From IMG/VR virus record IMGVR_UViG_3300047444_000069, positions 1-64,000 of that record: 64,000 bases of DNA, one strand, 5' to 3'. Below the pieces are notes generated by a model. That model was not told the origin of the DNA, made no database searches, and saw only the letters and a list, made by a program, of their open reading frames with translations. Made by a program: the position numbers and the translations under genes. The DNA comes from a virus. Taxonomy: Duplodnaviria; Heunggongvirae; Uroviricota; Caudoviricetes. This document shows positions 3,731 to 43,421 of this stretch, one piece after another; the stretch's first letter is position 1; every line of letters starts with the position of its first letter.

Positions 3731-4906
3731 ATGAGCCAACTGACCATCGCTGAGTACCGTGTCGAAGAACTCTACGCCCGCGTGAAGAAGTTCAACAACA
3801 AGGCCACGAAGCTGAATCTCCCGGTCATCACGCTGGCGAAGACGGCGGCATTCACGAAGGACTTCAAGGCCCGCAATTCGGATGGCGTCCTGCAAGAGTA
3901 TTCGATCAACTACGTCACCATCGAAATCACTGGCGACATCCCGCGCATCGGCGGTTGGGCGATTCACTCGAAGGTCGAACCGTCTGGCGTGTTCGGTCAG
4001 AACTTCGTCTACTCGCAACCGGGCTTCGAAGCGGTTGAATCGCTGCGCACGACGAAGATGATCTGCGAACACTGCAACCACAACCGCGCACGTTCGCTGG
4101 TCTACCTGCTTCAGAAAATCGAGACGGGCGAACAGAAGTTGGTTGGCAAGACGTGCCTGAAGGACTTCTTGCCGAACATCGATGTGGCGGCGCTGCTGTC
4201 CTACCTCGAAGGCTTCCGCGAACTCGCAACGTCCAACATCGATGAAGACGCCGAACGTGCTCCCCGCGAAGCTTACGTCTACAGCACGAAGGAACTGATC
4301 GCAGAATGCCTCTACTCGATCCGTAAGGTTGGTTTCCGTTCGAAGAAGGCGGCACGCGAGATGGGCGAAGAAGGTACGGAAACTTCGGCATGGGTCGGCA
4401 TCGCGGATCAGAAGAAGCGCGAAAAGTTGTACCCGCTGGACGAAATGCGCCCGATTTTCGAATCGGGCGAAATCGAGAAGGTTCTGGACTTCATCAAGGC
4501 ACTGAACCCGCGCGATGATTTCGGCTACAACCTGCAACTGGCAGTCGAACAAGTCTACGCCCCGGCTAAGATGTTCCCGTTCGTGGCCGCTGGTGTCCAG
4601 ATGTACCTGAAGTCGCTGGAAAATGCCGCAGAAGCCGCGACGAAGACAAATGAGTACTTGGGGACTGTTGGTGAACGCAGCGTCTTCAGTGGCCTCAAAA
4701 TCGTCCGAGTGACGCCGATTGAAGGTCACTACGGTACGACCTTTCTGACGTGCTTCGAAGATGATGCAGGACGTTCGCTGGTCTGGTTTGCATCGAAGTG
4801 TCCGGGTAAGGTTGGTGAAGTGTTCAACCTGAAGGCAACGATCAAGGAACACAAGGACTACAACGGCACGAAGCAGACGGTGATCACCCGAGCTACGGAA
4901 GTTTGA
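3731..4906 (+). CDS. hypothetical protein (391 aa) with possible zinc-binding CxHCxH...C cluster
   Basis: SD GGAG upstream of ATG 3731; strong promoter upstream, intrinsic terminator downstream; 'CEHCNHNRA...GKTCLKDF'. Confidence 0.65.
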   Translation: MSQLTIAEYRVEELYARVKKFNNKATKLNLPVITLAKTAAFTKDFKARNSDGVLQEYSINYVTIEITGDIPRIGGWAIHSKVEPSGVFGQNFVYSQPGFEAVESLRTTKMICEHCNHNRARSLVYLLQKIETGEQKLVGKTCLKDFLPNIDVAALLSYLEGFRELATSNIDEDAERAPREAYVYSTKELIAECLYSIRKVGFRSKKAAREMGEEGTETSAWVGIADQKKREKLYPLDEMRPIFESGEIEKVLDFIKALNPRDDFGYNLQLAVEQVYAPAKMFPFVAAGVQMYLKSLENAAEAATKTNEYLGTVGERSVFSGLKIVRVTPIEGHYGTTFLTCFEDDAGRSLVWFASKCPGKVGEVFNLKATIKEHKDYNGTKQTVITRATEV

Positions 4907-10816: not shown

Positions 10817-11091
10817 TGAAAAAATTGATCGCACTTGTTGCGATCTGTGCATCACTGGCTGCGTGCGGGACGACCCCGCCGAAGCCGGTCCTCGCGCCGA
10901 TTGCAACCCCATCTGACCTAACCCGTCAGTGCCCCGATATTCCCTATATCGCCAGTGATGCAAACCTTGGTGACACAGTGACCTACATCACCAATTTCCA
11001 AGTCCAGTATAACGTCTGTGCAGCGCGCAATGACTCCCTTCGTGAAGTGACCAGTCCGCAACCTACTACGTCACCTTCACAGGGAAAGTAA
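10816..11091 (+). CDS. o-spanin (Rz1-like outer-membrane lipoprotein)
   Basis: signal peptide + lipobox 'SLAAC'; Pro-rich; 91 aa; separate, non-embedded (T4 pseT.3/pseT.2-like architecture). Confidence 0.6.
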   Translation: MKKLIALVAICASLAACGTTPPKPVLAPIATPSDLTRQCPDIPYIASDANLGDTVTYITNFQVQYNVCAARNDSLREVTSPQPTTSPSQGK

Positions 11092-12095
11092 TGACCACAA
11101 AGATTCAAGAGAAAACAGACAGTCTGATCACGCAGTATCCAGAAGTCGAAGCCTTCACTAAGAAGCAGCTTTCGATCTTCTGGCTTCCTGATGAAGTCAA
11201 AGTCGAGAAGGACGTTCAAGACGTTCTGACGAACATGATCGTGCCCGAGAAGCATGGCGTCACGACGACCCTGAAGCTGTTCACCAAGTACGAACTGAAG
11301 GCCGGTGCGGATTACTGGATGGGGCGGTTCAAACGTCGATTTCCGCGTCCTGAGTTTCAAGAGATGGCTGCGACGTTCGGTATGTTTGAACTGGCTATCC
11401 ACAAGCGGTTCTACCAGAAGATCAACGAACTGACGTTCCTTCACACGGACGAGTTCTACAACAGCTACACCGAAGACCCAATCCTAAAGGCCCGGATGGA
11501 CTTCATTGATGAAGTCATCTCTGACCCGGCTGATTTGGTATCGCTGGCTGGCTTCTCGATGATCGAAGGCGCGATCCTTTACACATCGTTCGCCTTCCTG
11601 AAGCACTTTCAGCAACAGGGCAAGAACAAGCTGTTGAACGTGGTTCGTGGCATCAACTTCAGTGTTCGCGACGAGAACCTTCACTCGCTGGCTGGTGCAT
11701 GGGTCTTCCAAAAGTTGCTGGACGAACAGAACCCTGATGCAGCATATCGGGCTGTACTAAAAGATCGCATCTTCGCGATGGCCCGCGCGCTCTATGAGCA
11801 TGAGTGCCGCATCGTGGACATGATCTTCGATAAGGGGGCGATCCCCGGCATCACGGCGCACCAGTTGAAGAACTTTGCGATGTCGCGCGTCAACGAAGTC
11901 CTGAAGAATCTGGGCTACGACAAGCTGGAAAAGGTTGAGTACAACCCGATTGCTGAGTGGTTCTACAAGGCGGTGAATAGCTACACGTTCAACGACTTCT
12001 TCAGCGGCATGGGAAGCCAGTATCACCGTTCGTGGGATGAAGAAGCCTTCGTCTGGAAAACAAAAGCACAACGAGAAGCAGAGGCAGTAGCATGA
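11091..12095 (+). CDS. nrdB: ribonucleotide reductase small subunit (NrdB-like)
   Basis: 334 aa; di-iron ligand helices 'EGAILYTSFAFLKHF', 'RDENLHS'. Confidence 0.8.
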   Translation: MTTKIQEKTDSLITQYPEVEAFTKKQLSIFWLPDEVKVEKDVQDVLTNMIVPEKHGVTTTLKLFTKYELKAGADYWMGRFKRRFPRPEFQEMAATFGMFELAIHKRFYQKINELTFLHTDEFYNSYTEDPILKARMDFIDEVISDPADLVSLAGFSMIEGAILYTSFAFLKHFQQQGKNKLLNVVRGINFSVRDENLHSLAGAWVFQKLLDEQNPDAAYRAVLKDRIFAMARALYEHECRIVDMIFDKGAIPGITAHQLKNFAMSRVNEVLKNLGYDKLEKVEYNPIAEWFYKAVNSYTFNDFFSGMGSQYHRSWDEEAFVWKTKAQREAEAVA

Positions 12096-13795
12096 GCGCA
12101 TCAGTCTATGAACAATTGAGTGTCGAACGTAAGGCACTCCAAACAGAAGGTCTGGTCCCCGAGTGGTACACAACCGCTGGTTTCCAGATGTTCAAGGACA
12201 AGTACGAGTATCAGACCAACGGACAATCTGTTCGTGGTCAGTTCAAGCGTATTGCAGCAACCGCCGCTTCCCATCTTCCTCTGAGTATCGCTGAACTTGG
12301 CGAACAGTGGTTCTTCAAGCTTCTCTGGAATGGTTGGCTGTCCGCATCGACGCCTGTTCTGGCGAACACTGGAACGGATCGTGGACTGCCGGTGTCGTGT
12401 TCTGGCGGCAAGATCGGTGATTCGGTCTATGACTTCTATGCGCACAAGCTTGAAGTTGCGATGTTGACGAAGAACGGTTTCGGAACGTCTGGCTATCTAG
12501 GCGGCATCCGTCCGCGTGGTTCGAAGATCAGCACTGGCGGCAAAGCATCGGGTGTCCTCGATGTCTTCACTGGCCTGATCGATGACATGCGCAAGATCGC
12601 ACAAGGCACAGCACGCCGTGGCGCATATGCGGGCTACCTTGAAGCGGATCATGGGGACTTCGATGAAGTGTGTGATTTCATCTACAACAACCCGGACGAT
12701 GCAAACATCGGTTGGGTCATCACTGATGCGTTCGTTGCGCGTCTGGAAGAAGGCGATGTAGATACGCATCGACGCTTCAAGAAGATGCTGAAGCTGAAGA
12801 TGGTGCATGGTAAGGGCTACTTCTTCTTCGTAGACAAGGCAAATCGTCATCGTCCAGAGATGTACAAGAAGCTGGACCTTCGCATCAACAACAGCAACCT
12901 GTGTTCGGAAATCATGCTGTTCAACGATGAAGATCACACGTACACCTGTGTTCTGAGTTCGATGAACGTCGCTAAGTACGACGAGTGGAAAGATACGGAA
13001 GCGGTGTATTGGGCGACCATCTTCCTTGACTGTATCGCGGCTGAATTCATTCAACGGGCCAAGAAGATTCCGGGTCTGGAACGCGCTGTTCGCTTCACCG
13101 AGAAGGGTCGTGCTTTGGGTCTGGGGCAATGTGGTTTCCATACCTACCTGAAGCAGAACATGATCGCTTATGAGTCGTTCGAAGCGCACATGAAGAACCT
13201 CGAAATCGCGAAGCACATCTGGGACAAGTCGCTCGAAGCATCGCAGTTCATGGCTATCGAGATGGGTGAACCGGAATGGTGTAAGGGCTATGGTGTTCGC
13301 AACACGCACCGTATCGCCATCGCGCCTACGAAGTCCACAGCGAACTTGATGGGCGGCGTGTCCGAAGGTATCAACCTCGATCCGGCGAACGTCTACAACG
13401 CGTCTGGTGCGGCTGGTGAGATGGATCGTATTGATCCGGTCTTCTTGGCACTGATGAAGGAACGCGGCCACTTCAACAAGAAGGTCGTTGCCGACATCGC
13501 AGACAAGCAGGGTTCGGTTCAACATCTGACTTGGTTGACTGATGAAGAAAAGGCAGTGTTCCGCACTGGTTTCGAAATCAACCAAAAGACTCACGTTCGG
13601 ATGTGTTCGACGCGTGGCCGGTTCATCGATCAATGGCAGTCGGTCAACCTGATGTTCGCGGCTGATGAAGATGAAGAATGGATTTCCGAAGTCCATCAAG
13701 ACATCTTCCTTGACGAGAACATGCTTGCAAGCTACTACATCTATACGTCCGCTGGCGTTCAAGCGGCAAAAGGTGATTGCGAGGCTTGCCAATAA
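12092..13795 (+). CDS. nrdA: ribonucleotide reductase large subunit (class I NrdA-like, short form without ATP-cone)
   Basis: 567 aa; active site 'SNLCSEIML'; C-terminal redox pair 'CEAC'; ATGA-coupled to nrdB. Confidence 0.8.
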   Translation: MSASVYEQLSVERKALQTEGLVPEWYTTAGFQMFKDKYEYQTNGQSVRGQFKRIAATAASHLPLSIAELGEQWFFKLLWNGWLSASTPVLANTGTDRGLPVSCSGGKIGDSVYDFYAHKLEVAMLTKNGFGTSGYLGGIRPRGSKISTGGKASGVLDVFTGLIDDMRKIAQGTARRGAYAGYLEADHGDFDEVCDFIYNNPDDANIGWVITDAFVARLEEGDVDTHRRFKKMLKLKMVHGKGYFFFVDKANRHRPEMYKKLDLRINNSNLCSEIMLFNDEDHTYTCVLSSMNVAKYDEWKDTEAVYWATIFLDCIAAEFIQRAKKIPGLERAVRFTEKGRALGLGQCGFHTYLKQNMIAYESFEAHMKNLEIAKHIWDKSLEASQFMAIEMGEPEWCKGYGVRNTHRIAIAPTKSTANLMGGVSEGINLDPANVYNASGAAGEMDRIDPVFLALMKERGHFNKKVVADIADKQGSVQHLTWLTDEEKAVFRTGFEINQKTHVRMCSTRGRFIDQWQSVNLMFAADEDEEWISEVHQDIFLDENMLASYYIYTSAGVQAAKGDCEACQ

Positions 13796-27210: not shown

Positions 27211-28008
27211 ATGAAATTTCTGAAAGTCTTGCTGGTTTCCTTTGTAGTCCTGATGATGGCCGCATGTGGCCGCATCGACACCGGTCACTCTGGCGTTCGC
27301 ACAAGCTGGAACAAGATGGTCCAGACACAAGTCGTCACGCCGGGATTCTACGTCGCAGTCACGGACGATGTGACGCAGTACGTCACGAACGAAATCACGT
27401 TCAAGCTGGAAAACGAGAAGCCACAGACCGCCGATAAGTCGTATCTGAAAGACCTCGACGCAACCTATACGTGGCAAGTCACGTCGAACGATCTTCCGAC
27501 ACTGGTGACGCGATTCAAGAATCGAACCTTGGTTCAAGGCGATGACCGCTACCCGATGGGAATTTACGTCGATGCCGTGATGCAGCGCAGCTTGGCACAG
27601 GCCGTCAGCGAAGTCGATGCACTCGATGCAAACCAGAAGCGCACACAGATCGAGAACAATACGATCAAGTTTGCGACCGAGAAGTTCAAAGAAGAAGGAC
27701 TGGACAAAGACATCCACATCAATCAGGTGATGATCAAGAACATCGAGATTGATCCGCGTCTTCAGGAATCGATCCTTCGCAACGTGACTGCACAGAAGGA
27801 CAACCAGACGAAAGACATCGAGATTTCGACCGCCGACAAAGAAGCGAAGCGTATGGCGAAGCTGGCCGAAAACGGTTCGAACGCTAACTACATCGCCCTG
27901 TTGAACGCACAGTCGAACATGAAGATCGCGGAAGGCATCGCGAACGGTCGGGTCAATACCATCGTCGTCCCGGCTGACTTCAAAGGCATCGTGAACACGG
28001 CGAAGTAA
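27211..28008 (+). CDS. SPFH/band-7-like lipoprotein
   Basis: lipobox 'LMMAACG'; 265 aa with SPFH-like central domain and coiled-coil tail. Confidence 0.5.
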   Translation: MKFLKVLLVSFVVLMMAACGRIDTGHSGVRTSWNKMVQTQVVTPGFYVAVTDDVTQYVTNEITFKLENEKPQTADKSYLKDLDATYTWQVTSNDLPTLVTRFKNRTLVQGDDRYPMGIYVDAVMQRSLAQAVSEVDALDANQKRTQIENNTIKFATEKFKEEGLDKDIHINQVMIKNIEIDPRLQESILRNVTAQKDNQTKDIEISTADKEAKRMAKLAENGSNANYIALLNAQSNMKIAEGIANGRVNTIVVPADFKGIVNTAK

Positions 28009-28259
28009 TGGTAACGGTTGACGACATCCTGTATGGCGATGACAACCATCTCTGGAAGCTGCGTGGTGCAGAGGCGACCGAAGTCATCGCCCAAAAGATC
28101 GAAGCGATGAAGCGCCTGTATCAAGAAGTCATCGCCATCGCGGACAACGCCGATCTAAGCGTGCATGTGACGTTCAGCTTCCCGGAAGGGTTGACGACCG
28201 GTCACAACGAATACTTCCGTCCAGAAGTAGCGTGGAATCCATCATCGAAATATTGTTGA
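28008..28259 (+). CDS. member of C-terminal-Cys small-protein family (outlying paralog)
   Basis: 83 aa; '...HVTFSFPEGLTTGHNEYFRPEVAWNPSSKYC' parallels '...FEFTFDGITGSYYTYRP...GWQGSSC' of 40087..40320. Confidence 0.5.
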   Translation: MVTVDDILYGDDNHLWKLRGAEATEVIAQKIEAMKRLYQEVIAIADNADLSVHVTFSFPEGLTTGHNEYFRPEVAWNPSSKYC

Positions 28260-31835: not shown

Positions 31836-32309
31836 ATGACGCAGAAACAACATATCGAAGTCCTGATCGAAGAATTCAAGAAGTCGCAAGAAGAATTCAA
31901 GGCAAAGGCAATGGCCTCGTTGAAGAAGCTGTTTGCCGACACGTTCGAAGCATTCCCAGAAACGAAGTTCATTTCTTGGACCCAATTCGCGCCCCACTTC
32001 AATGATGGCGACGAATGTGTCTTCTGCGTTCATCCCATCACGGCATCGAATGCCAATCCCGAAGATGTCCGATATGGCGAATACATTGGTGAAGACACGG
32101 AAGAAGGCGAAGAACACATCTGGATCTATGACGCCGACTACGGTTCGTATGATGTGCCTTCGAACGAAGCGGAAGATGCATTCGGCAGTCTGAGTAACCT
32201 GATCCAGTCGGACGAACTGGAAGACATCCTACGATCCACCTTCGGCAATCACGTTCGCGTCATCGCAACCCGCGAAGGCTTCACGACCGAATCCTACGAC
32301 CACGACTAA
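31836..32309 (+). CDS. acidic hypothetical protein
   Basis: 157 aa, D/E-rich C-terminal half. Confidence 0.5.
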   Translation: MTQKQHIEVLIEEFKKSQEEFKAKAMASLKKLFADTFEAFPETKFISWTQFAPHFNDGDECVFCVHPITASNANPEDVRYGEYIGEDTEEGEEHIWIYDADYGSYDVPSNEAEDAFGSLSNLIQSDELEDILRSTFGNHVRVIATREGFTTESYDHD

Positions 32310-32317
32310 AGAAAAAC

Positions 32318-32590
32318 ATGAGCAAGACTAAGCTGTTGGTAATCGACACGCAGACGCGCGTTGTCCATTCGTTCGAAGGTAACTACCGTTGCGGCGAAGC
32401 CCATCTGCCCGCCGATGAAGACCTTGGTCCTGCTGCTGGACTGATCGAAGAACTGAACGGGTTCCGCGAGATGGCAGACGAACGCCGGTACAAGAAAGAA
32501 AAGGCCGCAGAAGAACTGGCGGAACGCAACAAGGCAATCATGGCGCTTCATCACGAATACGCCAAGTGGTTCCAACTGCTTATCAAGTGA
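32318..32590 (+). CDS. hypothetical small protein
   Basis: 90 aa. Confidence 0.45.
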   Translation: MSKTKLLVIDTQTRVVHSFEGNYRCGEAHLPADEDLGPAAGLIEELNGFREMADERRYKKEKAAEELAERNKAIMALHHEYAKWFQLLIK

Positions 32591-32596
32591 GGAAGC

Positions 32597-33724
32597 ATGA
32601 GCAAGCAATATGATGTGGTGGTGTATCGCGGTCGGTTCCAAGGTTTCCACAATGCGCACCTGAAGACGATCCTGATGGCGCTTCAGTTCGCCAAGAAGGT
32701 CATCGTCGTGATCGGTAGTGCCAACGAAGCCCGCACGTACTATCGCAATCCGTTCTTTGAAGATGAGCGTATTGAGATGATCAAGGGCGCATTGTCCGAT
32801 CACTTCCGCCACGAAGACGTGTCGTTCGTTTCGGTTCAAGACAACCCGAGCGATAGCGCATGGGCGGAAGATGTCGAAGACAAGGTTGCCGCGCGTGTAA
32901 ATCGTCTGTTCGAAGGAACCGAAGGTGTCATCAGCATCGCACAGATCGGTTTCAAGAAAGACGCCAACTGCGAACGCGATGTCGATCTGTTCCCGACATG
33001 GGAATACATCGAGACACCCAACTTCGAACCGCTGGACGCTACGCATGTGCGCGAAGTTCTGTTCAGCATGAAGCCACTGTCGTTCCTCGCTGGCGTGTGT
33101 CCGCATTCGGTGATTCAGTATTTCGAAGCGTTCCGCCAGTCGCACACGTGGCTGAACATGTTCGAAGAAAAGATTTACGTCGAGAACTACCAGAAGCAGT
33201 TTGCTGGTCTTCCGTATGCTCCCACGTTCGTGACTGGCGACAACGTAGCAATTCAACGCGGTCGTGTGCTGTTGGTGAAGCGTGGCAATCATCCGGGCAA
33301 GGGTCTGTGGGCGCTTCCGGCTGGCTTCTTTAACGCCAAGAAGCATGTCACCAAGGGCGAAGTGATCCCCGCTGACCGTGATCCGCTGGATTGTGCCGTT
33401 CGAGAACTGTTCGAAGAAACGAAGGCCAAGGTGACGCGTCTCGAATTGGAAATGCGTGTGATCGGTGAGGAAGTGTTCGCGGCTGAAGATCGTGATCCGC
33501 GTGGCCGCATCATCACTCATGCGTTTGCCTACAACCTCGATACGCTGTCCGATCTTGAAACCGAAGCGGCGGATGATGCCACAGAAACCGGCTGGTTCTT
33601 CCTTGGTGACCTCGATCCCCGCACGATCTATGCGGACCACTTCCAGATCATCAAGTGGGGCTTCTTTGAGTACCACAAGGTCAGTAATTGGGCCTTGCAA
33701 GACCGAATGAACCGGCTGGTATAA
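32597..33724 (+). CDS. bifunctional NMN adenylyltransferase / Nudix ADP-ribose pyrophosphatase (NadM-Nudix)
   Basis: 'GRFQGFHNAH' (H/T)xGH nucleotidyltransferase motif; C-terminal Nudix box 'RELFEETKAKV'. Confidence 0.75.
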   Translation: MSKQYDVVVYRGRFQGFHNAHLKTILMALQFAKKVIVVIGSANEARTYYRNPFFEDERIEMIKGALSDHFRHEDVSFVSVQDNPSDSAWAEDVEDKVAARVNRLFEGTEGVISIAQIGFKKDANCERDVDLFPTWEYIETPNFEPLDATHVREVLFSMKPLSFLAGVCPHSVIQYFEAFRQSHTWLNMFEEKIYVENYQKQFAGLPYAPTFVTGDNVAIQRGRVLLVKRGNHPGKGLWALPAGFFNAKKHVTKGEVIPADRDPLDCAVRELFEETKAKVTRLELEMRVIGEEVFAAEDRDPRGRIITHAFAYNLDTLSDLETEAADDATETGWFFLGDLDPRTIYADHFQIIKWGFFEYHKVSNWALQDRMNRLV

Positions 33725-33742
33725 CAACTACAGGAAATAAAA

Positions 33743-35098
33743 ATGTACACAGCGAACATCCATCTGCCACAAAACTTCGTCCTTGAATCGGACTCCTACA
33801 AGTTTTCCCATGTCCCAGAAATCTACCCGGAAGGTACGGAAGCATTGCACGCGTATCTGTCGGCACGCGTGAAGGGTCAACGCGTGGTCCAGTTCGGTCC
33901 CTCGATGTGGATCAAGAAGAAGCTGCTGTCCCCGATCACACTGAAGATGATCAACGAAGCTGATGACTTCATCTCGGCGCACATCGGCCCCGGCGCATTC
34001 AATCGTGCGTTCTGGCTTCACATCCTGAACACGTATGGCGGTTTCATTCCGCTGACGATCCGTGGTCTGCCAGAAGGTACGGTCACGGACAGCTACGACA
34101 CGTTGCTGACGATTCAATGTGACGATCCGGTCTGCTTCCCGCTGGCACAGTTCATCGAAGCATCGCTTCAGTCGGACCTCTGGTACAGCACGACCATCGC
34201 GACGAACGATCTGGAAAACTACGAAGTCGCCAAATCGCACTTCGATTTGTTCTCGGATCAACCGCATCTTCTGCCGTTCATGCTGCATGACTTTGGCGCG
34301 CGGGGTTGTACGTCCGAAGAACAGCGTCAGATCGGCGGCGCTGCGCACCTGATCTTCTTCCAAGGTTCGGACACGATCAGCGGCATCCGTGCAGCAAACC
34401 TGTACTATGGCTGCGAGATGGCCGCGTATTCGGTTCGCGCAACTGAGCACAGCATTCAGTGTGCGTATGGTCCCGAAGGGCAAGAAGCCTACATTCAACG
34501 CGTTCTTGACGCACATGCAAAGCCGGGTAACATCGTCTCGCTGGTGCTTGATGGCTACAACGTCTGGCGCGAAGCTGAACTTCTGTGTACGAAGTTCAAG
34601 GAACAGATCGTCAACAGCGGCGCGAAGATCGTGTTCCGTCCTGATTCGGGCGACATGTTCGAAGTGGTTCCGCGTCTTCTGGAAATGCAAGCTGAAGCGT
34701 TCAGCTACACGGTCAATAGCAAGAACAAGAAGGTCATCAACAATGTCGGCCTGATTCAAGGCGATGGCATCGACAAGACCACGTTCATGTTGATGATGCA
34801 GAAGGTCGTATCCCTCGGCTATGCACCTGAATGCGTCGTCATGGGTTCTGGTGGTGGTCTGCTTCAGAAGGTCAACCGCGATACCCTGAAGTTCGCACAG
34901 AAGGCATCGTCCATCAAGATCAATGGCGAGTGGCGCGATATTTTTAAAGACCCGATTACCGATCCGGGCAAGAAGTCCAAGACGGGTTTGCAAGACGATC
35001 CGCGTTTCGTAACGTACTACACGCCCGATGAAGGTCTGGTATACAACGAAGACCTTGCAACGATCCGGGAACGTGCGTTCGCTGGCGCGGCTGTGTAA
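33743..35098 (+). CDS. nicotinamide phosphoribosyltransferase (NadV/NAMPT)
   Basis: 451 aa; N-terminal 'DSYKFSH' and overall PRTase type II features; adjacent to NadM-Nudix as in vibriophage KVP40. Confidence 0.75.
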   Translation: MYTANIHLPQNFVLESDSYKFSHVPEIYPEGTEALHAYLSARVKGQRVVQFGPSMWIKKKLLSPITLKMINEADDFISAHIGPGAFNRAFWLHILNTYGGFIPLTIRGLPEGTVTDSYDTLLTIQCDDPVCFPLAQFIEASLQSDLWYSTTIATNDLENYEVAKSHFDLFSDQPHLLPFMLHDFGARGCTSEEQRQIGGAAHLIFFQGSDTISGIRAANLYYGCEMAAYSVRATEHSIQCAYGPEGQEAYIQRVLDAHAKPGNIVSLVLDGYNVWREAELLCTKFKEQIVNSGAKIVFRPDSGDMFEVVPRLLEMQAEAFSYTVNSKNKKVINNVGLIQGDGIDKTTFMLMMQKVVSLGYAPECVVMGSGGGLLQKVNRDTLKFAQKASSIKINGEWRDIFKDPITDPGKKSKTGLQDDPRFVTYYTPDEGLVYNEDLATIRERAFAGAAV

Positions 35099-37242: not shown

Positions 37243-38322
37243 ATGAAAAAATTACTGGTTGGTATTTTGTTGTCCTTAGTAACTGTGATCGCATTTGCGT
37301 TGCCGAACCCGCGTCAGATCGAAGATGCATTGGCCGCTGGTCGCTACAACGATGCACAGTCGATGGTGGCGCAAGTCCTCAACGAACGTCCCGATTCGGC
37401 GCGTGCGCACCTGTTGAACGCGTATCTACTGATCCATGTCCAGCACGACAAGACGGCGGCAAACGCTGAACTCAACACGGCTTCTGGTCTGGACCGCAAC
37501 GGCGATGTGAAGAACAGTCCTCTGTTTGGTCGCGTGGTAGGCGAAATCGACACGTACAAGGCCGCTGCGCCGCCCACACGACAGCGGACATACGAACAGA
37601 CCCCGGTCGTCTCGAAAGCCGCCGTATCGCCTGTGGCGTCACCTGTGGTGCAGTCTGAACCCGAGAAAAGTGGTGGTTATGGTTTCGTGATCTTCGTTGT
37701 TCTGTTGGTAGCAGTTTGTATCGGCGTGATTGCCTACCTGTTCATCCGTGGTGTAGACGAGCGGCGCAAGCTGGAATCCTCTTATACGCCGTACACGACA
37801 TCCGGTAGTCGCCAGTTGACCCGGACGCGCAGTGGTGGAACCTACAACGCACCGTACAACCCGCCGCCTGTGCCGCTCGATCCGTATCCGGGTGCAATGT
37901 CGGTTCAGCACTTTCCGGCCCCGGTTCAGGTTGTACAGCAAGCCCCGCAACAATCGTTCGGAAGTCAAGTCGCAGCAACCGCAACCGGTGTCGTCGCTGG
38001 TGAACTGATTCACGACGCCCTGACTAGCAGCAAGCATCATTCCCGGACTTGGGAAGAACCGGTTCGAGAACGCGAAGTTGTTCGTGACCCGGATCAGGGT
38101 TCTTCGCGCAGTTCGTCGTCGCGTGACGAATCCCCGGTGTCGTATAGCAACGAGCGTTCCTCGTTCTCGTCGGGGTCAGATGATAGCTGGTCGTCGCGTA
38201 GTTCCGACAGTTCTTCGTCGTCCTCGTGGGACAGTGGTTCCAGCAGTAGCAGCAGTTCGTGGGATTCCGGTTCCTCGTCGTCGTGGGATTCGGGCAGCAG
38301 TTCGAGTAGTTCCGACTGGTAA
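37243..38322 (+). CDS. membrane protein with signal peptide, TPR-like segment, TM helix and Ser/Trp/Asp repeat tail
   Basis: 'MKKLLVGILLSLVTVIAFA'; TM 'GYGFVIFVVLLVAVCIGVIAYLFI'; C-terminal 'SWDSGSSSS' repeats. Confidence 0.55.
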   Translation: MKKLLVGILLSLVTVIAFALPNPRQIEDALAAGRYNDAQSMVAQVLNERPDSARAHLLNAYLLIHVQHDKTAANAELNTASGLDRNGDVKNSPLFGRVVGEIDTYKAAAPPTRQRTYEQTPVVSKAAVSPVASPVVQSEPEKSGGYGFVIFVVLLVAVCIGVIAYLFIRGVDERRKLESSYTPYTTSGSRQLTRTRSGGTYNAPYNPPPVPLDPYPGAMSVQHFPAPVQVVQQAPQQSFGSQVAATATGVVAGELIHDALTSSKHHSRTWEEPVREREVVRDPDQGSSRSSSSRDESPVSYSNERSSFSSGSDDSWSSRSSDSSSSSSWDSGSSSSSSSWDSGSSSSWDSGSSSSSSDW

Positions 38323-38361: not shown

Positions 38362-38390
38362 TTGACATAGACCGGCATTGAGCGTACAAT
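38362..38390 (+). promoter_or_regulatory. sigma70-like promoter TTGACA-17-TACAAT
   Basis: -35/-10 match, spacer lacks CCCAAAC core. Confidence 0.5.
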
Positions 38391-38693: not shown

Positions 38694-38750
38694 ACACATA
38701 ATCGTGGTGTTTTGGAAACACCCTCAACCACGAAGCGAAGGCGACCATAT

Positions 38751-39113
38751 ATGACTCAAATCACGTTTCAGCACCAACTCAGCAATCATGACATCATCGA
38801 TGTTTGTAATGGTTGCGACAAACTTGATGTACAATACAAACTCGATGAAGTTGAACAGAAACGCGTGGTCGCGGAGCAAGAACACAACACCATCATCAGC
38901 GAAGCGAAGGACCGTGGCTTCGTCGTCTTGACGCGCGAAGAAGCGGAAGAAATGAAAGACGACATCGAAGCGGGTGAATGTCTGGTCCAGATGATGGAAG
39001 AAGCGGCAAGTCTCTGGGAAACCAACCCGGAAGAAGCGGCCAAGAAGATGACGCACATCATGTTCCTGACGACCGGCAAGAAGCTTCAATTCGCTGGTGC
39101 AATCGCAGCATAA
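38751..39113 (+). CDS. hypothetical acidic protein
   Basis: 120 aa from 'MTQITFQHQ'. Confidence 0.45.
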   Translation: MTQITFQHQLSNHDIIDVCNGCDKLDVQYKLDEVEQKRVVAEQEHNTIISEAKDRGFVVLTREEAEEMKDDIEAGECLVQMMEEAASLWETNPEEAAKKMTHIMFLTTGKKLQFAGAIAA

Positions 39114-39140
39114 TCAACAACAGAAGTAGAGAACTAGAAA

Positions 39141-39443
39141 GTGTCGAATAACCTGATTAACAGTCCTGAAGCAAAGAAGCGTTTCAACAACAAGCTGTCG
39201 GAAATCTCGGCGTCCTTTACCCGCGTTGAAGCTGAACGCGATCTGGTGAAGACCATCGTGTCCGACCTCGCTGAAGAATTCCAGATCGACAAGAAGATCG
39301 TCAATCTGCTGGCCCGCACGTATCACAAGTCGGACTTCAAAGAGAAGGTCGCAGAGAAGACCGAATTCGAAATCATCTACGAAACCATTACGGGTGAAAG
39401 CCCGGAAGCCGGTGATTCGTATAACGGCGAAGATGGTGAGTGA
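39141..39443 (+). CDS. hypothetical protein (GTG start)
   Basis: 100 aa, helical, acidic tail. Confidence 0.4.
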   Translation: MSNNLINSPEAKKRFNNKLSEISASFTRVEAERDLVKTIVSDLAEEFQIDKKIVNLLARTYHKSDFKEKVAEKTEFEIIYETITGESPEAGDSYNGEDGE

Positions 39444-39444
39444 G

Positions 39445-39696
39445 ATGACGAAGTACGCAACTGCACAAGAAGCAAATAAGGCAATCGCAGATAAGCTGGC
39501 GCAAGCGCAACAGTTGTTCCGCGAATGTGCCGCGATTGCCGAAGAAGCAAATGTCGAAGTACACACGGACATTCTTGGCCTCTGGGGAACGGGTGTGACA
39601 TACATCCCGAAGTCCGAACGCGAGGAATGGGGTGAAGAAACCCAAGAACGTCTTGAAGAAGATGGCGGATGGATGGCATCCGCATCAAGCTGCTAA
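39445..39696 (+). CDS. C-terminal-Cys family paralog B (ends GGWMASASSC)
   Basis: 83 aa; N-terminal 'AIADKLAQAQQL..ECAAIAEEANVEVH' helix shared with paralog at 41816. Confidence 0.55.
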   Translation: MTKYATAQEANKAIADKLAQAQQLFRECAAIAEEANVEVHTDILGLWGTGVTYIPKSEREEWGEETQERLEEDGGWMASASSC

Positions 39697-39727
39697 AACC
39701 ACACGAAACAAACTGAGAACGACCAAC

Positions 39728-40078
39728 ATGCAACTTACTCGCGACGAAGCACAAATCTTCCTGAACATGATCGACGGCAACGCAACGGTTCCCGACAGTT
39801 CGATGCCGATCCTCGACAAGATTTACAAGGCGTACCCGGACATCCTTCGTGGTACGAAGTACATCAAGCTGCTTAACGAGTGGCAAGCCAATCGCGAGAA
39901 AGTGAAGAAGTCGGCAATGGCACAGATCAGCGAACTGCTGGCCTCGGCCAAGGCAAGCGTCACGGAAGCCGCGCGTATCGCAAAGGCTGCTGGTGTCGGC
40001 TTCGATCTGTCCATCGGTGATCCCGATTATGGTTGCTACTTCGACCCGGTTGAAGGTTGGTCGTCCTCGAACTGCTGA
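39728..40078 (+). CDS. C-terminal-Cys family paralog C (ends EGWSSSNC)
   Basis: 116 aa; 'AKAAGVGFDLSIGDPDYGCYFDP' core. Confidence 0.5.
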   Translation: MQLTRDEAQIFLNMIDGNATVPDSSMPILDKIYKAYPDILRGTKYIKLLNEWQANREKVKKSAMAQISELLASAKASVTEAARIAKAAGVGFDLSIGDPDYGCYFDPVEGWSSSNC

Positions 40079-40086
40079 GAACATTC

Positions 40087-40320
40087 ATGACGCAAATCAC
40101 ACAAGAACAGAAGGCCGAAGCTTCGCGCCTGATCGCAGAGCAAGTCGCTATCGCAGAAGAAGCACTCGCGAAGGCCGAACAGTTGGCGAAGGAAGCGCGA
40201 GTTGGCTTCGAATTCACGTTCGACGGCATCACTGGTTCGTATTACACATATCGCCCGTATGGAAAGACCGACGCGCCGGTTGAAGGTTACTACGATGGTT
40301 GGCAAGGGTCGTCCTGCTGA
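40087..40320 (+). CDS. C-terminal-Cys family paralog D (ends DGWQGSSC)
   Basis: 77 aa; 'AKEARVGFEFTFDGITGSYYTYRP'. Confidence 0.55.
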   Translation: MTQITQEQKAEASRLIAEQVAIAEEALAKAEQLAKEARVGFEFTFDGITGSYYTYRPYGKTDAPVEGYYDGWQGSSC

Positions 40321-40631
40321 TGGACAAGCAATTCCTCGCAGAGCGCAAGAAAGCCGTTAAGGAAATTGCGCGACTGACGGCACTTCAGAAGCAATGCATC
40401 GAAAGCATCGAAGAACTGGCTGACCAGTACGGCATCCGCGTTGAACTGGACCTTCCGGCAACGGGTTACAACGGCGACGTGTGGTATGTGCCGAACCTGC
40501 CAGAAGAACTTCGAGAGAAGATTGACGCCGGTGAAGATGTTGACCTGTCGGGCACGGAATGGGAAGAATCCGCCGAATTCGATTCTTACGGCGAACAACA
40601 CGGCTGGAAGAACAGTTCGTCATACTGCTGA
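40320..40631 (+). CDS. C-terminal-Cys family paralog E (ends HGWKNSSSYC)
   Basis: 103 aa; 'YGIRVELDLPATGYNGDVWYVP'; start overlaps upstream stop. Confidence 0.55.
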   Translation: MDKQFLAERKKAVKEIARLTALQKQCIESIEELADQYGIRVELDLPATGYNGDVWYVPNLPEELREKIDAGEDVDLSGTEWEESAEFDSYGEQHGWKNSSSYC

Positions 40632-40634
40632 ACC

Positions 40635-40877
40635 ATGACAGACAAGATGACACAAGAAGAAGCCGCGAAGTTCGTATCGGCTTTGGCTGAAAGTATTCGC
40701 ACGACGCTTCGGACCATCGTTCAAGTTGCAGACGAACATGATCTGGATGTGAAGTTGCTGGATGAATTTGACAATTACCTTCGTTACTACGGTCGCACAT
40801 GGACCGAAGAAGATACCGATGGCGGAATCGAGTACGTTCGAACCGGTGACGGCGGATGGTATAGTTCACACTGCTGA
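40635..40877 (+). CDS. C-terminal-Cys family paralog F (ends GGWYSSHC)
   Basis: 80 aa. Confidence 0.5.
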   Translation: MTDKMTQEEAAKFVSALAESIRTTLRTIVQVADEHDLDVKLLDEFDNYLRYYGRTWTEEDTDGGIEYVRTGDGGWYSSHC

Positions 40878-40889
40878 GTAAAAACAAAC

Positions 40890-41819
40890 ATGATTATCAT
40901 TGGTTCGAAAGCACTGGTAGCACGCGGCATTCAAACGGGTCGCAAGTCGTTCGACATCGACGTGGTAGGCGAGTATGACGAAATCGTTGACTATGCGAAG
41001 AAGTATCACGGCAACATTCGCGCATGTTACCCGATTGATGAAGGCAAGAAGCTGGTAGTGAAGACGGACCGGACGATCATCGAAGGTGAAATCACATGGG
41101 AAGGATCGAGCGCAGCGGCCCTGCGTGATCTGATCCTTACCGACCCCCAGACGATCCATGCGCGTGACTTTGTAGGCCATCGTTTCGCGTCCCTTGACGT
41201 GCTGTACATGCTGAAGATGTCGCACCGCTATCTGAAGGATTCGCCTCACTTCCTGAAGACGATGAAAGACATCCAGTTGATGCGTTCGAAGGGTGCAACG
41301 ATCCGCCCGGAACACGAAGCGTTCTATCAACAACGGATGAAGGACACCTACGTCTATAAGCATCCGAAGCTGGATCAGTCGAAGAAAGACTTCTTCAATG
41401 GCGATGGCGTGAAGTACGTCTATGATCATGACAGCATCCATGAAGCAGTGAAGCATCTGATCAAACCGGCCTACACGTTCTACAAGCCCGACGAGAACGA
41501 AGTGAACTGTTCGAAAGACATGTTCTACGCAGTCCCGAAGATCATCCGGCTGTATGGTGGTCTGGAAGAAATATATGTACTTGCCTTAGAGAGAAGTCAG
41601 ATTCCGTTCGGTGATCTGTGGTCCCCGAAGAAGTCGTTCGACATGGCGCTGATGAAGGTCTGTACGTCGATCACATCGGGCTGGTTCCGCGAGTTCTGTT
41701 GGGAGCATTACGACGAGATTCAATCGCTTTACGACCCGGAATATGTTGAGAAGTTTTGGGCGAAGGCAATGGCGGGCGAAGTGAAGCCCTACAATATCGA
41801 AGAAGACGTTTACGCATGA
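40890..41819 (+). CDS. Pol-beta-superfamily nucleotidyltransferase-fold protein
   Basis: N-terminal 'IIGSKALVARGIQTGRKSFDIDVVG' = hG[GS]x9-13Dh[DE]h NTase signature; 309 aa; embedded in the paralog array. Confidence 0.5.
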   Translation: MIIIGSKALVARGIQTGRKSFDIDVVGEYDEIVDYAKKYHGNIRACYPIDEGKKLVVKTDRTIIEGEITWEGSSAAALRDLILTDPQTIHARDFVGHRFASLDVLYMLKMSHRYLKDSPHFLKTMKDIQLMRSKGATIRPEHEAFYQQRMKDTYVYKHPKLDQSKKDFFNGDGVKYVYDHDSIHEAVKHLIKPAYTFYKPDENEVNCSKDMFYAVPKIIRLYGGLEEIYVLALERSQIPFGDLWSPKKSFDMALMKVCTSITSGWFREFCWEHYDEIQSLYDPEYVEKFWAKAMAGEVKPYNIEEDVYA

Positions 41820-42076
41820 TCAAGAAAGATAAAGAATTGGTTTCAAAGGCAATCGCGGCAAAGCTGGCGCAAGCTGATGTACTGTTGGCCGAATGCGTGA
41901 TGCTGGCCGAAGAAAGCGGTGTATGTTTCGAACTTCCGTGGGGCGGTGAAGGCACACAGCAACGCGGCATGGGGGCTGGTTACGTCCCGACAACCGCAAG
42001 CGAACGCGACAAAGAGTGGAACATCACGAACTACGATGATTCCACTGGTTGGCAACCGTCTGCGGGAATCTGCTAA
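41816..42076 (+). CDS. C-terminal-Cys family paralog G (ends TGWQPSAGIC)
   Basis: 86 aa; 'AIAAKLAQADVLLAECVMLAEESGVCFEL'; ATGA-coupled to NTase gene. Confidence 0.55.
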   Translation: MIKKDKELVSKAIAAKLAQADVLLAECVMLAEESGVCFELPWGGEGTQQRGMGAGYVPTTASERDKEWNITNYDDSTGWQPSAGIC

Positions 42077-42082
42077 AAGTAG

Positions 42083-42115
42083 TTGACAAAGGTGGGGATT
42101 CTCGTTAGAATCCCC
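42083..42115 (+). promoter_or_regulatory. early promoter TTGACA-17-TAGAAT with 9-bp IR across -10
   Basis: GGGGATTCT 42094-42102 / AGAATCCCC 42107-42115. Confidence 0.6.
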
Positions 42116-42542: not shown

Positions 42543-43421
42543 ATGAAGACCTTCCATCAACTACGCCGGTACTTGAATGACCTTCCCCTGATCAGCGAAG
42601 AACTGCATCAGTCGATCACCAACGTTCTCGATTCGGAACACATCAAGCCCGAGCACAAGCTGAACCACGTTTCGTCGGCAATCCGCACGGCTATCAAGAA
42701 CGGCGAAGATCATGGTCTGGAAGATGCGAAGCCGAAGAAGGGTTCCAGTCGTGCCGTGTTCTTCCCGAAAGACCCGCACAAACTGAAGATCGATGGCGTC
42801 GATACGCACATGCCTACGGCCCTGAAGGTCGCGTTCCCCGGCCAATTGGACAAGTATAAGCATCATGACGAACCGTTGCTTGGAGAGGAACAGAACCGCG
42901 TAGAAGGCGATCATTGGACCAATCAACAGTATGGCGTCCTACGTCACGGTGATCGGTCTGGCGAGTACCATACGAACGAGCACGGCTTCCTTGCGCCGAT
43001 GCTGCACGCCCATGATGAAGGGCATCACATCCACTTCGGTAAGATCGAACCAATCAAGGCCGGTGACTTCCAGAAGCACACGAAAGCGCCCGGATTCGAG
43101 AAGGGTATCAGCCATCAGGAAATGTTCGACTACCTGAACCATCATCACGCAGAGGCACACGGACAGTCCTATACGGGCAAGACTTCGCCCGAGCGCATCG
43201 AGAAGCTTGACGATCACCCGATCCTCAACAACATGCACGGATGGATGGGTAACACTGGCGCACATCCCGCCGATCTAAACAAGCGGAACATGGGCATCTG
43301 GACGCATCCGGTGACGGGAAACAAACACATCGTGGTCAGCGACTACGGCTACACAGGTGATGTCGCCAAGCAGTACATGCAGCGACGACAGCGAGCAAGC
43401 AAAGCAATGCGGGGTTGGTAA
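42543..43421 (+). CDS. His-rich protein (family member 2)
   Basis: 292 aa, ~12% His incl. 'HAHDEGHHIHFG', 'NHHHAEAHG'; CTAAATAG 62 nt upstream. Confidence 0.6.
   Translation: MKTFHQLRRYLNDLPLISEELHQSITNVLDSEHIKPEHKLNHVSSAIRTAIKNGEDHGLEDAKPKKGSSRAVFFPKDPHKLKIDGVDTHMPTALKVAFPGQLDKYKHHDEPLLGEEQNRVEGDHWTNQQYGVLRHGDRSGEYHTNEHGFLAPMLHAHDEGHHIHFGKIEPIKAGDFQKHTKAPGFEKGISHQEMFDYLNHHHAEAHGQSYTGKTSPERIEKLDDHPILNNMHGWMGNTGAHPADLNKRNMGIWTHPVTGNKHIVVSDYGYTGDVAKQYMQRRQRASKAMRGW

Follow-up and report, generated by a model that had tools for sequence, protein, structure and literature searches.

We describe here a predicted nucleotidyltransferase (NTase) of the Pol-beta fold and a family of small acidic proteins encoded beside it, which seem to make up a phage module of two parts that has not been described before. 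The module was analyzed in a stretch of 64,000 nucleotides from a tailed phage (Caudoviricetes, IMG/VR record IMGVR_UViG_3300047444_000069, positions 1 to 64,000; hereafter the window). A literature search on the DUF and PHROG family names, RB69ORF134c and related terms found no description of the enzyme, of its partners or of their association, and databases carry both only as DUFs or hypothetical proteins; what is new here is the conserved class of partner proteins that accompanies a Pol-beta NTase. The pair occurs in hundreds of sequenced phages, laboratory and therapy-relevant groups included (RB69-like Mosigvirus, phAPEC8/rV5-like phages, Acinetobacter Lazarusvirus, Pseudomonas syringae phages, and the Ralstonia phage RsoM2USA). 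Finding out what it does could uncover a novel protein modification or a novel mode of NTase regulation by phages, and a commonly occurring group of early phage genes would then have a known role.

The enzyme gene spans 40890–41819 on the plus strand, and the 309-aa reading frame given in the first-pass annotation of this DNA was confirmed, with an ATG start and a product that begins MIIIGSKALVARGIQTGRKSFDIDVVG. In Pfam, residues 1–78 match DUF7277 (E 6e−9, 36.9 bits against a curated cut-off of 27) and residues 104–281 match DUF7275 (E 5.6e−69, 232.2 bits against a curated cut-off of 27), and the full length corresponds to phrog_2141 in PHROG (E 1.6e−105). All three families are catalogued without function, and one GenBank record labels a homolog as a "putative nucleotidyltransferase". 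A total of 2,734 homologs were retrieved from a large protein collection at E ≤ 1e−5, and tblastn returned matches in 727 phage records, of which the best was the Ralstonia jumbo phage RsoM2USA (52%), with further matches in phAPEC8, in Acinetobacter, Pseudomonas and Aeromonas phages, and in the RB69-like Mosigvirus phages, where the homolog goes by the name "RB69ORF134c". The enzyme is also encoded, at 95% protein identity, on a 168-kb IMG/VR contig, and no phage nearly identical to the window was found in GenBank. Judging by its other genes (a DsbA-type regulator, a y05I-like protein, ribonucleotide reductase, DNA ligase, and NAD salvage genes), the window comes from a large T4-like phage. 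No sequence relatives of the enzyme were found in the PDB, a search with the family profile included, and nothing relevant was returned by NCBIfam and PADLOC. Among 185,579 species genomes, the family was matched five times and each match lay on a phage-looking MAG contig, so the module appears confined to phage or phage-like sequence and does not behave as a mobile bacterial toxin-antitoxin module.

An AlphaFold2 model of the enzyme, computed from 42 homologs (pLDDT 89.8, pTM 0.84), has an alpha/beta domain at the N-terminus followed by a helical domain, and both the model and its structural matches place an alpha/beta NTase core fold in the protein. The first Foldseek match against the PDB was MenT1 (probability 1.00), followed by a Paracoccidioides NTase-like protein, CCA-adding enzymes, ANT(2'')-Ia, and LnuA, while MenT3/TglT, MenT1, MenT4, and the putative Helicobacter pylori NTase 4ok0 are the top structural neighbours. 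The structure-based search, to which the fold had been left at first pass, thus found an NTase, and on the predicted structure this assignment is sound. The structural scores are modest, and the family is no more than distantly related to the AbiEii/MenT and ANT/Lnu groups. The suggested placement close to CD-NTases or OAS did not hold, as the nearest structures were AbiEii/MenT toxins and small-molecule ANT/Lnu enzymes, none of the top 50–60 structural matches was a CD-NTase, cGAS, or OAS protein, and PADLOC gave no match either. The models for KNTases and other named antibiotic NTase families were not matched, Pfam giving only a sub-threshold DUF6036 (E 0.09) and NCBIfam nothing relevant, and DUF1814/AbiEii (PF08843) gave no Pfam match even at E values up to 10.

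The catalytic motif region, delimited by conservation and the model, covers 40902–40961 (+), with G5-S6 at 40902–40907, D22 at 40953–40955, and D24 at 40959–40961. In the model, I-G5-S6 falls at the predicted junction of strand 1 (residues 2–4) and helix 1 (residues 5–11), D22-I-D24-V on a predicted strand (residues 23–27), and E65 (41082–41084, +), the candidate third catalytic carboxylate, on a predicted strand comprising residues 63–68. The alignment used for the residue counts holds 199 relatives, all of them clade-mates that are only 40–60% identical overall: G5/S6 is kept in 197, D22 in 199, and D24 in 198, and the position of E65 is occupied by E in 192 and by D in 6 (acidic in 198/199). 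Such near-invariance means that the NTase motif is no chance match, and the conservation pattern argues for an active, catalytically competent Pol-beta-fold NTase. The signature hG[GS]-x9-13-D-h-[DE]-h, under which the protein had originally been recognized, stood as far as its motif residues are concerned (conserved in 197–199 of 199) and failed in its spacer, which counts 15 residues from G5-S6 to D22; the carboxylates on which that recognition had been made to depend, D-x-D and a candidate third acid (E65), are kept throughout the family. The helical C-terminal domain (DUF7275; 41199–41732, +, from Pfam and conservation) has a set of invariant residues of its own (K109, H112, K123, H180, D181, H184, E226, E227, E234, and R235), and no convincing structural neighbour was found for it.

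The small ORFs beside the enzyme gene belong to phrog_899. In order to avoid circularity, the profile used to recognize them (head-HMM) was built from the partner bodies only, with the tail left out. Five Cys-ending ORFs lie directly upstream of the NTase gene at 39433–40877, all on the plus strand, in agreement with the small paralogs that had been reported ahead of it: paralog A (39433–39696, ending GGWMASASSC; head-HMM E 3e−18, phrog_899 E 2e−9), paralog B (39728–40078, ending GWSSSNC), paralog C (40087–40320, 77 aa, ending GWQGSSC), paralog D (40320–40631, ending GWKNSSSYC), and paralog E (40635–40877, ending GGWYSSHC), the last four being recognized by both phrog_899 and the head-HMM. The start of paralog B was set at the ATG that follows the stop of paralog A, a GTG at 39632 being possible, and its homolog in the metagenomic relative L004 has a similar length. 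The start of paralog D overlaps the stop of paralog C by 1 nt, and the stop of paralog E lies 12 nt ahead of the NTase ATG. On the other side of the enzyme gene stands paralog G (41816–42076, +, ending GWQPSAGIC; phrog_899 and head-HMM), and the ATGA coupling claimed for these two genes is real, since the TGA stop at 41817–41819 overlaps the ATG at 41816–41818. A distal seventh paralog (28008–28259, +, ending AWNPSSKYC; phrog_899 E 0.003, head-HMM E 1.9e−8) sits 12.6 kb away and keeps the tail. A weak head-HMM match at 32198–32590, which has no tail, was rejected as a paralog.

A promoter-like site (11/12 match to the consensus) was located at 38362–38390 (+), and the next one (11/12) at 42083–42111, after paralog G; both are matches to a consensus and no more, and such sites are not more numerous in the window than in shuffled controls. 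The stretch between 38362 and 42083 contains the DsbA gene, the array, the enzyme, and paralog G, an arrangement that would fit a single early unit. Within 38712–39443 (+), directly upstream of paralog A, there is a T4 DsbA-type transcription regulator (PF11126, E 2.9e−9) together with a C-terminal region of weak similarity to y05I (E 0.0025); the y05I-like and DsbA genes may share the transcription unit of paralog A, with a start possibly at the 38362 site.

The partner proteins are short and acidic (median length 86 aa, median pI 4.4), and no relatives of them were found in Pfam, NCBIfam, PADLOC, or the PDB. Their bodies have a mean column identity of 17%, while the W, the S, and the terminal C are invariant and the W-x-x-S spacing is fixed. 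The head-HMM finds 206 ORFs, all on the strand of the enzyme gene, and the strict tail motif (an ORF ending in W.{0,3}[SATG]S.{0,3}C) is present in 172 of them, the rest being mostly close tail variants; about 10 of the 206 carry 1–5 residues after the Cys and a few have no Cys. A library-wide search with the partner profile gave 635 cluster representatives, of which the best 150 are 60–203 aa long and aligned, nearly all of them, to the last residue, with no fusion to another domain seen among these 150. The tail W-x-x-S-x(1-5)-C ends 148 of the 162 partner representatives examined, with three residues as the commonest S-to-C spacing in these 162 sequences, and approximately 5% of the partners have one to a few residues beyond the Cys, or no Cys. 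In the AlphaFold2 model of paralog C, residues 6–37 form a helix and residues 39–57 a hairpin, and residues 71–77, i.e., the tail, have a pLDDT below 50; the tail is thus predicted to be disordered or flexible. No structural neighbours of this model were found. A short Ser/Cys tail that is invariant yet disordered is what one commonly sees in motifs to which a partner binds or which it modifies.

The association of the two families was followed across phages in neighbourhoods of 12 kb, with IMG/VR loci gathered using clade-specific enzyme peptides as seeds. At least one same-strand ORF with the strict tail was present in 71 of 80 IMG/VR loci; the nine loci without one include three that lack any DNA upstream and two with variant tails (WSSSNCY and WDVSWC), so that a tailed partner on the enzyme's strand accompanies 73 of the 77 informative loci (~95%). 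The strict tail was carried by 165 of 5111 same-strand ORFs versus 4 of 6342 on the opposite strand, and 169 tailed ORFs were upstream of the enzyme gene versus 17 downstream. Partner copies number one to six per IMG/VR locus, and the median gap between the last partner stop and the enzyme start is 21.5 nt. Four clade-A loci have no partner within 2 kb. Partners were also found upstream of the enzyme in 5/5 MAG loci and in 9 GenBank phages of unrelated lineages, immediately upstream of the homolog in four metagenomic relatives (L003–L006), and just upstream of it in every Gram-negative phage that was opened, e.g., with two copies in RsoM2USA, three in phAPEC8, two in the Acinetobacter phage Abraxas, three in the RB69-like phage ATK47, and at least five in the Pseudomonas phage Pyxpy01. 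The converse search gave the same picture, as the phages Merlin and PsgM04F, found by a small-protein query, both have the enzyme next door, and the tblastn counts of enzyme and partner per genus are close (Aeromonas 59 vs. 57, Enterobacter 36 vs. 34, Shigella 18 vs. 17). The co-location of the NTase with small proteins, initially noticed in this one window, is a feature of ~95% of its relatives, across unrelated lineages. That T4 has no such gene was likewise borne out: neither the enzyme nor the partner family was found in the 149.9 of 168.9 kb of T4 that were scanned, the e.3–nudE interval included, while in ATK47 the enzyme and the partners are both located in this interval.

Two of the loci deserve a separate remark. 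In ATK47 (NC_055708.1), the partners are three tandem ORFs at 3870–4667 (102, 93, and 68 codons from stop to stop), left without annotation in the RefSeq record, that end in WVSSSALC, WVASSHTC, and WVSSSYSC and lie between e.3 and the RB69ORF134c homolog. The 377-aa protein P0112 was considered as a partner naturally fused to the enzyme, a view that was discarded because a TAG stop separates the two (…PACW*, with a GTG start following); the gene call, made on an ENA contig (L003, 1–1240), runs through this stop, and the DNA holds two separate genes, whose adjacency it confirms.

The enzyme family falls into two clades. Clade B enzymes (~260 aa) are encoded by Gordonia and Mycobacterium phages (actinophages) and by Vibrio and Alteromonas phages, and keep I-G-S/T, D-x-D, and the invariants of the helical domain, with approximately 50 residues of the N-terminal domain and the clade-A residues R113, H120, R149, S263, and R267 missing. 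No tailed partners were seen within 5 kb of clade B enzymes, so the partners go with one enzyme clade, and the clade-A-specific parts are candidate tail-binding elements. An obligatory disulfide or shared metal between C258 of the enzyme and the partner Cys was also considered and failed, since 11 clade-A enzymes have Ala258 and 7 of these 11 loci still have Cys-tailed partners. In the clade B Alteromonas phage PT11-V22, the homolog (ORF138; L094, 5001–6152) is prolonged at the C-terminus by ~110 aa rich in Tyr, Gly, and Glu, an addition not present in the other homologs.

The reading that we tentatively favour, at somewhat short of an even chance, is that an active NTase acts on or with the partner tails, probably by nucleotidylating the invariant Ser. 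The scheme that we infer for the contact between enzyme and partner, the acceptor residue, the nucleotide used, and the biological target would run as follows. Enzyme and partners would be co-transcribed, each partner starting with a long helix, continuing as a small beta-hairpin body, and ending in a flexible W-x-x-S-x(1-5)-Cys-COOH tail; the enzyme would bind this tail and move an NMP from an NTP onto the hydroxyl of its invariant Ser, and the modification would arm or switch the diversified small effectors early in infection, with the terminal Cys either aiding recognition or providing another reactive group. Known NTases of the Pol-beta fold nucleotidylate ribose, antibiotic, or protein hydroxyls, the target of ANT(2'') and LnuA being an antibiotic hydroxyl, and the Ser hydroxyl is proposed as acceptor because the characterised structural neighbours all nucleotidylate hydroxyl groups. 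The reading is favoured by the NTase fold with its conserved catalytic residues, by the close gene linkage, by the invariance and predicted disorder of the tail, by the diversified copies beside a single enzyme gene, by the distal copy that retains the tail, and by the fact that the partner-less clade B enzymes are also those without R113, H120, R149, S263, and R267. Several observations count against it: clade B enzymes evidently work without such partners, four clade-A loci have none within 2 kb, ~5% of the partners have residues after the Cys or no Cys at all, and in large phages gene order can last without a functional link. The known protein-modifying Pol-beta NTases (GlnE, GlnD, MntA, and DrrA) target, to our knowledge, Tyr and not Ser, which speaks against Ser-nucleotidylation in particular. 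The MenT enzymes, which are the closest structures, act on tRNA 3' ends and are inhibited by a small upstream partner (PMC10435456), and this too weighs against the favoured reading.

The same MenT likeness is the starting point of the best-surviving alternative, possible in our view though unlikely, in which the pair resembles MenT/MenA1: the enzyme would extend RNA 3' ends, for instance tRNA CCA ends in a variant directed at host shut-off or tRNA repair, and the small proteins would dock onto it as inhibitors, timers, or specificity adaptors and not as substrates. The top structural neighbours (MenT3/TglT, MenT1, MenT4, and 4ok0) agree with it. MenA1, 68 aa long and with an extended helix at its centre, is the product of the gene just ahead of MenT1 and blocks the active sites of that enzyme (PMC10435456), and the partners likewise have a long helix (N-terminal, ~32 residues) and the directly upstream position. 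In addition, K109 and D127 of the helical lobe are invariant or nearly so and are spaced like MenT motifs III (Lys) and IV (Asp), a comparison made by the published motif description. However, AbiEii/MenT enzymes are recognized by PF08843, to which our family has no sequence match, and its near-restriction to phages (only the 5 MAG contigs among the species genomes) also sets it apart from them. Its helical domain is much larger than theirs and has its own invariant His/Asp/Glu cluster. An antitoxin role leaves unexplained why there are one to seven diversified copies per genome and why their sole invariant part is a disordered W-x-x-S...C tail, whereas the C-terminus of MenA1 is dispensable (PMC10435456).

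A more doubtful proposal is that enzyme and partners belong to a joint early programme of host takeover or anti-defence without ever touching, the enzyme nucleotidylating a small molecule or signal while the tails engage a host factor. ANT(2'')-Ia and LnuA, which like our enzyme combine an NTase core with a short helical domain, are among the top structural matches, the dense cluster of invariant His, Asp, Glu, Arg, and Lys residues in the helical domain suggests a ligand pocket of its own, and clade B enzymes work without partners. ANT(2'')-Ia and LnuA differ from our enzyme in being bacterial or plasmid-borne antibiotic-resistance proteins without partners, and their identity to it is 10–17%. 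What weakens the proposal is the tightness of the linkage (same strand, 21.5-nt median gap, ~95% of loci, unrelated lineages) and the fact that the two parts are present or absent together, both missing in T4 and both standing between e.3 and nudE in ATK47; as the early regions of these genomes are highly variable, shared timing alone is hard to credit. It is very improbable that the NTase-like domain is a catalytically dead scaffold with a likeness that is structural only, for although a sequence-level relative with a solved structure is missing, G5-S6, D22, D24, and E65 are nearly invariant in sequences as diverged as the 199 clade-mates, GS/GT and D-x-D persist in the distant clade B, and dead enzymes usually lose their catalytic motif residues.

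Modification of the partner tails, the reading that we favour, would have a precedent in MntA/HepT, where a minimal NTase covalently modifies a co-encoded partner (PMC7641770). This type VII system resembles the phage pair in that a minimal Pol-beta NTase is encoded beside a small protein, and covalent modification is the logic proposed here. It differs in that the partner of MntA is a HEPN RNase with an Rx4-6H motif that is modified on Tyr, whereas the candidate acceptor of the phage proteins is a Ser in a disordered tail, and copy number and phage restriction differ as well. The phage partners have no HEPN Rx4-6H motif (only W, S, and C are invariant), and their predicted fold is a helix plus hairpin instead of a HEPN bundle.

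A bolder version of the tail-modification reading, conceivable but improbable as we see it, is that the module is a form of post-translational tailoring in phages, in which one NTase-fold enzyme matures the W-x-x-S...Cys tails of diversified small acidic effectors. The chemistry could be Ser-O-nucleotidylation, which could be followed by elimination of the NMP to dehydroalanine and its capture by the terminal Cys, or, alternatively, it could be a protein-primed oligonucleotide synthesis. If tailoring of this kind does occur, virulent phages would be using a RiPP-like or type-VII-like logic against host targets. The arrangement recalls RiPP arrays such as prochlorosin (ProcA/ProcM) in its tandem diversified ORFs, its short Ser/Cys motif, and the single adjoining enzyme gene; on the other hand, the phage partners are folded acidic proteins of 60–200 aa, and their conserved part is the extreme C-terminus and not a leader. 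No RiPP tailoring-enzyme domain was found beside them, the enzyme matching only DUF models in Pfam.

Other Pol-beta NTases are known from large phages. T4 has its own annotated nucleotidyltransferase, nrdC.11 (L098, 5435–6445; motif YFGSHLYGTSTPESDVDF), which we take to be a member of the RlaP family. NrdC.11/RlaP and our enzyme are alike in being Pol-beta-type proteins with hG[GS]...DxD encoded in the early regions of large phages. NrdC.11 and NrdC.10 of T4 were rejected as relatives of the enzyme, with no HMM relationship to it. Of the Pol-beta NTases described in jumbo phages, those of the RlaP family are the most frequent; they are linked to RNA ligases, and a jumbo-phage survey lists other Pol-beta NTases (RlaP and CCA-adding enzymes) and not the present family (PMC7824862). 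Cys-tailed partners, in contrast to the phage module, are not described for RlaP.

Some further genes of the window were recorded along the way. The ORF at 42543–43421 (+) encodes a His-rich protein of 292 aa for which Pfam, PHROGs, NCBIfam, and PADLOC gave no match; in L004 the same place is taken by a counterpart of 297 aa, and the protein was not seen beside the enzyme in the other phage lineages checked. A predicted membrane protein of 359 aa at 37243–38322 (+) has an N-terminal TPR-like region, a DUF2076 match just above threshold, and a C-terminal Ser/Asp/Trp repeat (SSSSWDSGSSSS...), with a 360-aa counterpart at the same position in L004. The NAD salvage pair at 32597–35098 (+), 4 kb upstream of the array, comprises an NMN adenylyltransferase-Nudix fusion and a nicotinamide phosphoribosyltransferase, and L004 has it too. 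The large subunit of ribonucleotide reductase (11091–13795, +) may be split: its ORF of 567 aa corresponds to no more than the C-terminal 60% of the PHROG profile, and another ORF, of 334 aa, runs 4 nt into the start of the first.
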